Shown in pieces: positions 3,001 to 11,897 of a stretch of DNA of 64,000 bases (its first letter is position 1; each line of letters begins with the position of its first letter). A model generated the notes under the pieces. The model ran no database searches, was not told where the DNA came from, and saw only the letters and a list, made by a program, of their open reading frames with translations. Source of the DNA: Hormiphora californensis (lineage: Eukaryota > Animalia > Ctenophora); assembly GCA_020137815.1 (NCBI GenBank), contig CM035362.1, positions 1,488,001 through 1,552,000 of the forward strand, read 5' to 3'. Position numbers and translations under genes: made by a program.

Positions 3001-6000
3001 GTAAAACTTTCTATCATCTCTCTATACAACACTTTCTCGCTCTAATTCTATCCTTCTCCCTCTCTCTCTCTCCCTCTCTCTCCCTCTCCACCAAGATGAG
3101 TGCTGTCTGGCGGCACCGACCCGATCTGAAAAAACGGGGTCTGATGCCACCAGATCACCAGGATTATTAAGATGAACCCACAGTAGACAAATCAAGCAGA
3201 CTAGTGTGAGTGAACAATATTGAATAAATGGACAACATTTTGAACCTACCATGTACATGAAGACGTCCTTGATGACTTGCATGGACACAATATGAACCTA
3301 CCATGTACATGAAGACGTCCTTGATGACCTGCATGGACACTATATGAACCTACCATGTACATGAAGACGTCCTTGATGACCTGCATGGACACTATATGAA
3401 CCTACCATGTACATGAAGACGTCCTTGATGACCTGCATGGACACTATATGAACCTACCATGTACATGAAGACGTCCTTGATGACCTGCATGGACACTATA
3501 TGAACCTACCATGTACATGAAGACGTCCTTGATGACCTGCATGGACACTTTATGAACCTACCATGTACATGAAGACGTCCTTGATGACCTGCATGGACAC
3601 TATATGAACCTACCATGTACATGAAGACGTCCTTGATGACCTGCATGGACACTTTATGGTCCTGCCACTGGGTGTTCAGTACTGCCAGGAAGTCGTTGTA
3701 TAAAGATACCTCCACAGCTTCGCGGACCTGGGGGACAAGAAAAGGTTGGTAATGAAGTTACCCTTTCCTTGCCAGCCTTGATTTCGTAAAGAAGAGGGTG
3801 ATGGTAGGGACAAGAAAATGGAAGAAGTTGATAGGAAAGTGTTAGTCAATTGGGGGGGGGGGGGGACGGCTCGACGGGGGTGACAAATGATTGATATCTG
3901 TCTTTTCCAAATATAGAAACATTTCTACAGACCAATAATACGAGACAGAAATCTCTCGCAACTGACAAGAAGTGGGCGACAGTAATAACTGACAGATGGT
4001 AGAAATGGAGGTAAGAATTCTTTTCAATGAAGTAGCAAGACAAGTCATCAGAAATATTTTAGGAACAAATGAATGACATGATATAACAAGAATAATTGCA
4101 TTATGTATTCATAATGCGGTGTTTCCCTGCCCTTATTTAATACTGCATCAGCATGCGTCGACAGGATCAGTATCACAATATAAGCCACCGGCTTGGTCAC
4201 AATGTAATGTGAGATGCATGTGATATGTACTTCTCACATCGCTAACTCAAACTTAGTAACGAGCATTCGACAGTACCTAAGCCAAACACGCATTTCATCA
4301 ACCACAAAGTTCGACATCGCGAGTTAGCAGCGTCAACTACTAAACGTAACACGCTTCGCCGAACGGATTTTCTATAAGGAAACGTACACGGCTTTGTAGT
4401 TTCTGTCACAGTTAGTGCCGCGCACAACTCAGAGAAATAAGCGTCCTGACATCATATTTCATCAAAACAGTTATTTGATTTGATGAAGGAGCGCACTCGA
4501 GCGTTGTCAGGCGTTGTCCGTGACGGACGGACGGACGGACAGTTAGTTAATTACACAATCTGCTGATTTCTAAACCCTGAATGATCTTTTTAGCAAGTGC
4601 GTGCTAAAAACATCACCCGGGCAGGGACAAAAATGTTTCATTTCCCGTAATACTAGGATTTTCAACTCGTGTGTTATACGGGGTCTAAGCGTGTATACAA
4701 GTGTGGCTATTCCTCACCTCTTTCCGTAGGTGTTCCTCAATGACACTCCTCATCAGCTTGTACAACCGTGCACCGTGTTTGTGGAGGACAAGGGTGTAGG
4801 CGTTCCGATATAACTCCTCGTAACTTAGACCACCTGATATTATATAGGGGATTATTATATATAGGGGAGAGGGAGGGGAGACCAACTTAGAGGTCACCTG
4901 ATATAGGGGAGACCAACTTAGAGGTCACCTGATATAGGGGAGACCAACTTAGAGGTCACCTGATATAGGGGAGACCAACTTAGAGGTCACCTGATATAGG
5001 GGAGACCAACTTAGAGGTCACCTGATATAGGGGAGACCAACTTAGAGGTCACCTGATATAGGGGAGACCAACTTAAATAGGTCACCTGATATAGGGGAGA
5101 CCAACTTAGAGGTCACCTGATATAGGGGAGACCAACTTAGAGGTCACCTGATATAGGGGAGACCAACTTAGAGACCACCTGATATAGGGAGACCAACTTA
5201 GAGGTCACCTGATATAGGGGAGACCAACGTAGAGGTCACCTGATATAGGGGAGACCAACGTAGAGGTCACCTGATATAGGGGAGACCAACTTAGAGGTCA
5301 CCTGATATAGGGGAGACCAACTTAGATGTCACCTGATATAGGGGAGACCAACTTAGAGGTCACCTGATATAGGGGAGACCAACTTAGAGGTCACCTGATA
5401 TAGGGGAGACCGACTTAGAGGTCACCTGATATAGGGGAGACCAACTTAGAGGTCACCTGATATAGGGGAGACCAACTTAAATAGGTCACCTGATATAGGG
5501 GAGACCAACTTAGAGGTCACCTGATATAGGGGAGACCAACTTAGAGGTCACCTGATATTGGGGAGACCAACTTAGAGGTCACCTGATATAGGGGAGACCA
5601 ACTTAGAGGTCACCTGATATAGGGGAGACCAACTTAGTGTGCCACTCTGCGATGCAGTGTGTCACATATACCGCGTTAGTTAGTGAGATATGAAAAACTC
5701 CCTATAGCGGAGTTCTCTTCTGACTTCTAGAGTTCTGTTCTGACCTCAACAACTGACTGTTCTCCTCTATCTCTGCTCATATTACTATACAGTAGCTTAC
5801 AAGTGTTAAGTGTGAGTTCATGTGAGATAGACCTTTTACTTTGACCCAAAACAAAACCTTGTGCTTGAATTACTTTGTACTTTGTCTCATGAACCATGTC
5901 TGACCACGTACCGCCCCCCAATCCAACCCATACAAATGGTGGCTTCGGTGGGATTGTCAATGATGATCCTACCCCGACCCGTGTTGTTGACAGAGCAACA

Positions 6001-11897: not shown

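Follow-up and report, generated by a model that had tools for sequence, protein, structure and literature searches.

Introduction

Tandem copies of sequence across exon-intron boundaries have been described in amphioxus as mirages. According to two reports (PMC3087553, PMC3902484), they occur in the globins BflGb6 and BflGb9, Adh3, troponin C and PGBD5; their inner copies evolve in concert, their edges are excluded from this process, and splicing was regular as judged by RT-PCR. The first report places mirages at acceptors as well as donors, gives units of 10 to 160 bp, describes their length as unstable, and calls the mechanism of their birth unclear (PMC3087553). A row of splice sites has also been studied in human F7, where the repeated 5' pseudo-sites of a 37-bp VNTR in intron 7 were shown experimentally to be functional yet normally silent (PMC1557585).

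Intronic splice sites can also serve in recursive splicing. The recursive sites of Drosophila are conserved, strong and located in very long introns, with nearly all cut segments longer than 1 kb (PMC6110457), and exons at recursive sites are skipped through donor competition (PMC8605326). Tandem repeats are abundant in a sequenced ctenophore, making up 13% of the Hormiphora genome (PMC8527503). Our literature search, which largely covered journals outside subscription, found no work linking ctenophores with splice-junction minisatellites or recursive splicing.

Here, we analyze a stretch of 64,000 nucleotides from the ctenophore Hormiphora californensis (contig CM035362.1, positions 1,488,001 to 1,552,000), hereafter the window, in which all positions below are counted. 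It contains a 57-unit minisatellite of the mirage type that likely arose when the CUL3 intron-2/exon-3 boundary was duplicated. The spliceosome probably ignores its extra AG|GT, which would be tolerated decoys.

Results

Structure of CUL3 intron 2

CUL3 lies on the minus strand. Its exon pieces match Cullin-3 chains (E 1.6e-12 for exon 3) and the Pfam Cullin family, and the ten exons placed by tblastn with three homologues (P0001-P0003) give 356 codons without a stop, with all introns GT-AG. These homologues are proteins of relatives, 82-90% identical, and the relatives may lack the array. Intron 2 extends over 5678 nt (10511-4834, minus strand) between ATG|GTGAGT and CAG|GTGGTCTAAGTT. In the order of transcription of CUL3, the intron and its flanks comprise the following features:

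10512..10593, minus strand: CUL3 exon 2, 82 nt, ending in phase 1, donor ATG|GTGAGT; placed by tblastn with P0001 and P0003, boundaries and frame
10395..10503, unstranded: MITE-like element, 109 bp, lying 8 nt inside intron 2 and carrying terminal inverted repeats
10111..10217, unstranded: fold-back block at the 5' end of the array, formed of inverted repeats, fold z -17.3
9074..10110, minus strand: 5' arm of the 31-bp array, about 33 units, from TRF and unit comparison
5638..9073, plus strand: LTR retrotransposon-like element, 3436 bp, inside one array unit and antisense to CUL3
5158..5190, minus strand: variant unit CAG|GTGGTCTCTAAGTT, unit 49 of 57, the 'intermediate' of the original prediction
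4874..5637, minus strand: 3' arm of the 31-bp array, about 24 units, from TRF and unit comparison
4834..4873, minus strand: tract of the real exon-3 acceptor, with its own short duplication of CCCCTATAT(A)..., read from the sequence
4718..4833, minus strand: CUL3 exon 3, 116 nt, starting GTGGTCTAAGTT, donor GAG|GTGAGG, with a Cullin-3 match

The array occupies 1801 nt of the intron, the fold-back block 107 nt, the LTR element 3436 nt and the MITE 109 nt. With a remainder of about 225 of the 5678 nt, the original prediction of an intron that is mostly array and inserted elements holds, the LTR element being the larger part.

Other repeats are also present in CUL3. An 11-bp array of about 89 copies (10857-11832) begins 5 nt past the exon-1 donor and fills most of intron 1. 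At the other end of the gene, a 22-bp array (129-258, within 100-305, minus strand) has the exon-10 acceptor on one side and, upstream on the other, a diverged copy of this acceptor together with the exon start; exon 10 starts V-Y-I-G, and the relatives have G-Y-I-R. Head to head with CUL3 lies a gene with STPR-like repeats (14449-16182, plus strand; Pfam E 7e-4, below the curated cut-off).

TRF reports 31-bp arrays at 4874-5637 (24.5 copies) and 9074-10117 (33.6 copies), as well as a 2.3-copy inverted block at 10118-10187. Once the LTR element is set aside, these arrays become a single row of 57 complete head-to-tail units of 30-33 bp, 41 of them identical to the consensus. The unit starts, all on the sense strand and upstream of the real acceptor, are 57 CAG|GT and one AAG|GT. 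The predicted 31-bp array of about 60 copies, with CAG|GT in each, is therefore real, at 57 complete units.

The two arms have a common history. Three variant unit types occur in both, that is, on either side of the LTR insertion, and the pairing of variant units 1/11 and 8/18 in the 5' arm marks the duplication of a 10-unit block. The LTR element is young: its two 297-bp LTRs (5638-5934 and 8777-9073) are identical. It is flanked by a 4-bp TTAG target duplication and carries one 180-codon ORF with a weak zf-CCHC match (E 7e-4; 20.0 bits, against a curated 20.8); no other plus-strand ORF of at least 80 codons was found within it. TGG follows the first LTR, which we take to resemble a primer site, and a purine tract precedes the second. 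Together, the variants common to both arms, the 10-unit variant repeat, the identical LTRs and the target duplication within a unit point to one array that was expanded in blocks and then recently split. The inner units are homogenised, in that most are identical and the variants recur in blocks, and the real junction stays distinct. Such near-identity of units indicates either youth or homogenisation.

The MITE is present in five copies in the window at 93-100% identity, and the donor GTGAGT recurs in its 8-bp target duplication, which has one mismatch. As a result of this insertion (10387-10511), a second donor, CTG|GTGAGT, lies 117 nt downstream of the first. Another copy is located at 1173-1277, about 27 nt inside CUL3 intron 7.

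At its 5' end, the array turns back on itself. The fold-back block comprises a partial unit in forward orientation, roughly two units in inverted orientation and two hairpin turns in AT-rich TATATA tracts, giving the order forward, inverted, forward. In one turn, 41 paired bases enclose a loop of 1 nt. The other has 15 nt in common with the real acceptor, including AATAT, which the units lack.

Origin of the repeat unit

The unit and the junction align across the splice site, as ATATCAG|GTG--GTCTAAGTT against ATATCAG|GTGACCTCTAAGTT. Aligned with the unit, the 47-nt window at the junction scores 26, a value reached by none of 24,746 control windows (maximum 23), and the other eight CUL3 acceptor windows score 9-14. 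On the exon side, the match after GT beats 2994 of 3000 shuffles and is equalled by six. Furthermore, the exon letters matched by the unit encode GGLSY, which is kept in P0001-P0003 and is close to the GLSF of solved Cullin-3 chains. This conservation identifies the exon as the source and the array as the copy. All three close homologues contain KDNGGLSY, with no insertion there. The predicted derivation of the array from the CUL3 exon-3 acceptor is hence supported by a match that outscores every control window and crosses the boundary. Descent of the unit from the intron-2/exon-3 junction is well supported by this comparison of sequences, and it is the junction match that places its origin at the CUL3 locus.

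The original prediction also cited a copy at about 5161-5190 as an intermediate between junction and unit. The copy is present, but it lends less support to descent than was claimed, since GGTC and GACC are reverse complements and one 4-base inversion or hairpin-templated switch converts either form into the other. The single GTGGTCTC copy may thus be a relic, or it may have arisen by reversion or conversion. For the same reason, we rejected the GTGGTCTCTAAGTT copy as proof of ancestry. Intron gain by junction duplication was also considered and is not favoured, since neither the donor nor some 225 nt of intronic sequence is related to the unit.

The resemblance to the junction would be fortuitous if the unit were a dispersed satellite or mobile repeat that had landed here, or if the array were partly an artefact of assembly or amplification. 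Fold-back inversions are a known form of library chimera, which would suit the second version. However, the match covers conserved coding letters and outscores all 24,746 control windows, and the patterned variants, like the target duplication within a unit, speak for genuine DNA. Within the window, no 20-mers of the unit were found elsewhere with fewer than four mismatches. The exact 22-nt unit pattern also had 0 matches in metagenome contigs, which is weak evidence, as no relative of CUL3 is found there and the organism is probably absent: an alignment of CUL3 against this collection gave 263 pattern hits, none of them a relative, and no orthologous locus. On balance, a satellite or artefact is very improbable, and descent from the junction is retained.

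Splicing potential of the units

The exon-3 acceptor is CAG|GTGGTCTAAGTT at 4834/4833, and the last decoy AG (4898) lies 64 nt upstream of the real AG (4834). Downstream of the exon-2 donor (10512), exon 3 joins as GTGGTCTAAG and a unit joins as GTGACC. Joining the array AGs to exon 2 leads to a stop within 14 codons in 58 of 58 cases, and in 51 of these the reading is G-D-L-stop, after three codons. GT provides the first letters of 4 of the 12 real exons mapped in the window. The AG|GT of the unit therefore needs no special cause, being inherited from an exon that starts with GT.

The strength of these sites was estimated with splice models that rest on 12 sites in the window. A rough model built from 11 local sites gives the real exon-3 acceptor a score of 9.3 and the unit acceptor one of 4.8, which still places the unit acceptor within the top 3.6% of 442 background AGs. 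Its tract contains three G and an AG at -21, where 11 of the 12 real acceptors have 0-1 G and no such AG. Upstream of the unit acceptor stand branch-point-like words. The unit donor, CAG|GTGACC, has C at +5, where 11 of 12 real donors have G. It scores 4.3 in the rough local model, compared with leave-one-out scores of 4.9-9.4 for 11 of the 12 real donors and -1.8 for the twelfth, and is within the top 6% of 541 background GTs. By simple matching to the U1 consensus, it reaches 6.5 against 5-8.5 for real donors, level with several of them.

Two of these results count against reading the units as silent decoys, namely the U1 match, which is like that of several real donors, and the acceptor, which by its rank and branch-point-like words is not junk. 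An alternative is that the decoys leak: some transcripts would be spliced onto a unit, meet a stop and be degraded, so that copy number would lower CUL3 output in the manner of a splicing-linked VNTR, whether as a burden or as a dial. The early stop after all 58 AGs and the high rank of the acceptor are in keeping with this, and effects of repeat length on splicing are reported in humans (PMC10078293). Against it, the mirages reported in amphioxus gave no aberrant mRNA (PMC3087553, PMC3902484), though degraded forms would presumably escape those tests. In addition, growth to 57 units and acceptance of a 3.4-kb insertion in a conserved gene suggest little cost. We consider leakage of this kind unlikely and prefer decoys that are passed over.

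Masking of the decoys in hairpins was examined as a discriminator and rejected. The array folds no better than its shuffles (z -0.45), despite a small stem over G|GT. The predicted unpaired probability of the AG is 0.02 for the real acceptor and 0.00-0.05 for the decoys, so folding does not separate them. The strong fold-back hairpin can pair with only about two units at once.

Other boundary-spanning arrays

The window contains two further arrays that were built across a splice junction:

3241..3658, minus strand: CUL3 exon-4 donor array, eight copies of a 52-bp unit consisting of the exon 4 end and donor; the first copy is real
22855..23631, plus strand: ORMDL exon-3 acceptor array, 16 acceptors, with a 49-bp unit consisting of acceptor and exon start; the last copy is real

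CUL3 exon 4 is followed by seven extra copies of its last codons and donor, six of which are identical to the real one over 48 nt. None of the extra donors could be used without a frameshift or a stop: with six of them a stop is reached by exon 5, and the first adds 52 nt. In the ORMDL array, 12 of the 16 acceptors match one another exactly across 42 nt, the real copy at the end being one of these, and 15 of the 16 lead to a stop, leaving only the last in frame. With acceptors identical in sequence, it is position that must decide, the acceptor nearest the next donor perhaps winning by exon definition, or else errors are degraded. The presence of two sister arrays in two genes indicates that a boundary-spanning build recurs without recursive features.

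Among the 12 mapped introns there are five arrays of period 11-52, a count that omits dinucleotide runs and a degenerate 21-bp array in an inverted-repeat element. Three span a junction by descent, including the 31-bp array, whose TRF edge is 40 nt from the acceptor; the other two end 5 and 8 nt away from one. Under a model of uniform birth, at least three of five would span a junction with P ~0.015, though the calculation is post hoc, the sample is small and the enrichment is weak.

The wider window was surveyed with Pfam. Of the 443 ORFs listed beyond 16.2 kb, 422 were scanned, all but 21 near the end of the STPR gene and inside the inverted-repeat element, and the only strong matches were ORMDL and a papain-family protease. 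Arrays beyond 24 kb consequently cannot be placed against exons. One of these is a 32-bp array (48576-48864) whose unit has a pyrimidine run followed by TAG, which is acceptor-like, with no adjoining exon mapped. The inverted-repeat (fold-back-like) element, of about 4 kb (~18385-22340), fills most of ORMDL intron 2 and gives mirror-image TRF rows on its halves. Two long ORFs of 289 and 373 codons (24770-27855, plus strand) have no Pfam match and resemble related membrane proteins; they share a similar terminal PPSYDEVM motif, and the second contains a 48-bp coding repeat. The papain-family cysteine protease is found in two ORFs (35264-36265, minus strand), and its best named relatives are proteins of two ctenophores, Mnemiopsis leidyi (44%) and Bolinopsis microptera (43%).

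The sister arrays bear on the proposal, also part of the original prediction, that each unit is a potential recursive splice point. As working ratchet points, the units would receive exon 2 at their AG, regenerate a G|GTGACC donor and reuse it, removing the intron stepwise. AG|GT is indeed present in all 57 units, as CAG|GT on the sense strand; exon 2 joined to a unit would read ATG|GTGACC; the unit donor ranks high among background GTs (top 6% of 541); and the next unit supplies the downstream donor that an RS-exon requires (PMC8605326). Recursive splicing itself is not supported, however. With C at +5 and a score of 4.3, below 11 of 12 real donors, the regenerated donor is weak rather than strong, and its GT is the inherited start of an exon. 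The sites are young and only 31 nt apart, in a 5.7-kb intron with about 225 nt of non-repetitive sequence, as opposed to the very long introns and kilobase segments of fly recursive sites (PMC6110457). Since ratchet and downstream donors are identical, the donor competition described in PMC8605326 has nothing to act on. The AG|GGT of the ORMDL array cannot give a 0-nt point, and both sister arrays have a like build without a usable one. We therefore regard ratchet points in this array as improbable.

A related idea is that the mirage of an exon starting with GT mass-produces AG|GT as self-rescuing ratchet points, in that mis-spliced exon 2 would be re-spliced to exon 3 via the regenerated donor. 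Its chances are slim. If correct, self-rescue would let an array reach 57 copies at little cost, and re-splicing of the units would provide one route by which recursive splice sites arise, in the sister group of other animals.

Discussion

The structural features of the CUL3 array are those of a mirage: tandem repeats of minisatellite size, a unit across the boundary of its host, cryptic signals on the intron side, and homogenised inner units with the edges excluded. The mirage pattern of amphioxus is now extended to a ctenophore. Less usual for a mirage are the copy number and the fold-back scar.

From the array, its match to the junction, its division by the LTR element, the fold-back block and the stop after each decoy, a history of birth, expansion, insertion and exon choice may be proposed. 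In the first step, template switching during replication or repair, at the AT-rich self-complementary TATATA tract beside the acceptor, would have copied the boundary into the intron. Its probable traces are the fold-back block in the array and the changes in the unit, where 5 nt were lost, 2 nt gained and 4 nt inverted. Templated short copies, fold-backs and a 4-nt inversion are the expected leavings of repeated template switching at a self-complementary AT tract. We infer from the fold-back scar that the array was born in this way. In the second step, slippage and unequal exchange of blocks may have expanded and homogenised the unit, with the real junction remaining outside. Third, the LTR element would have been inserted later into one unit. 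Exon 3 is presumably still chosen through its stronger acceptor, paired across 116 nt with a good donor by exon definition. Rare mis-splicing onto a unit would meet a stop few codons later and be cleared by nonsense-mediated decay.

Given that PMC3087553 calls the birth mechanism of mirages unclear, no detail of the locus is more informative than the fold-back scar. The locus as a whole is an unusually clear record of birth (the fold-back scar), growth (the block duplications) and invasion (the young LTR element). With its three arrays, the window also provides a natural test of splice-site choice in a ctenophore where many sites are equal. The cleanest of the three is the ORMDL array, with 12 identical acceptors and a frame that is kept by the last only.

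Compared with the single, conserved and strong recursive sites of Drosophila, the CUL3 array is a set of 57 young, near-identical sites, 31 nt apart and with a weak donor. The likeness to ratchet points consists in an AG|GT within an intron and a further donor shortly downstream (PMC6110457, PMC8605326).

The amphioxus mirages are closer. Like BflGb6, the CUL3 array combines the 3' end of an intron with the start of an exon; its unit length falls within the 10-72 bp given for Adh3; and its copies carry AG/GT signals. Acceptor and donor types, both known in amphioxus, also occur together in the CUL3/ORMDL window. In contrast, the present host is a ctenophore rather than a chordate, and there are 57 units in CUL3 compared with 3-6 in BflGb6. 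Small indels and a 4-nt inversion separate the CUL3 unit from the real junction, and the array includes a fold-back block and an LTR insertion, unlike the amphioxus mirages in these sources. Unaffected splicing and instability of length have been demonstrated in amphioxus, whereas the CUL3 array is known from the sequence of one haplotype, in which the block duplications suggest turnover.

The F7 VNTR likewise has an edge unit across the boundary and a row of identical splice sites (PMC1557585), and the 52-bp array of CUL3 exon 4 has exactly this build. The two systems differ in which site has to prevail: F7 repeats a donor and its first copy wins, whereas the 31-bp array of CUL3 repeats an acceptor, so that the last must win.
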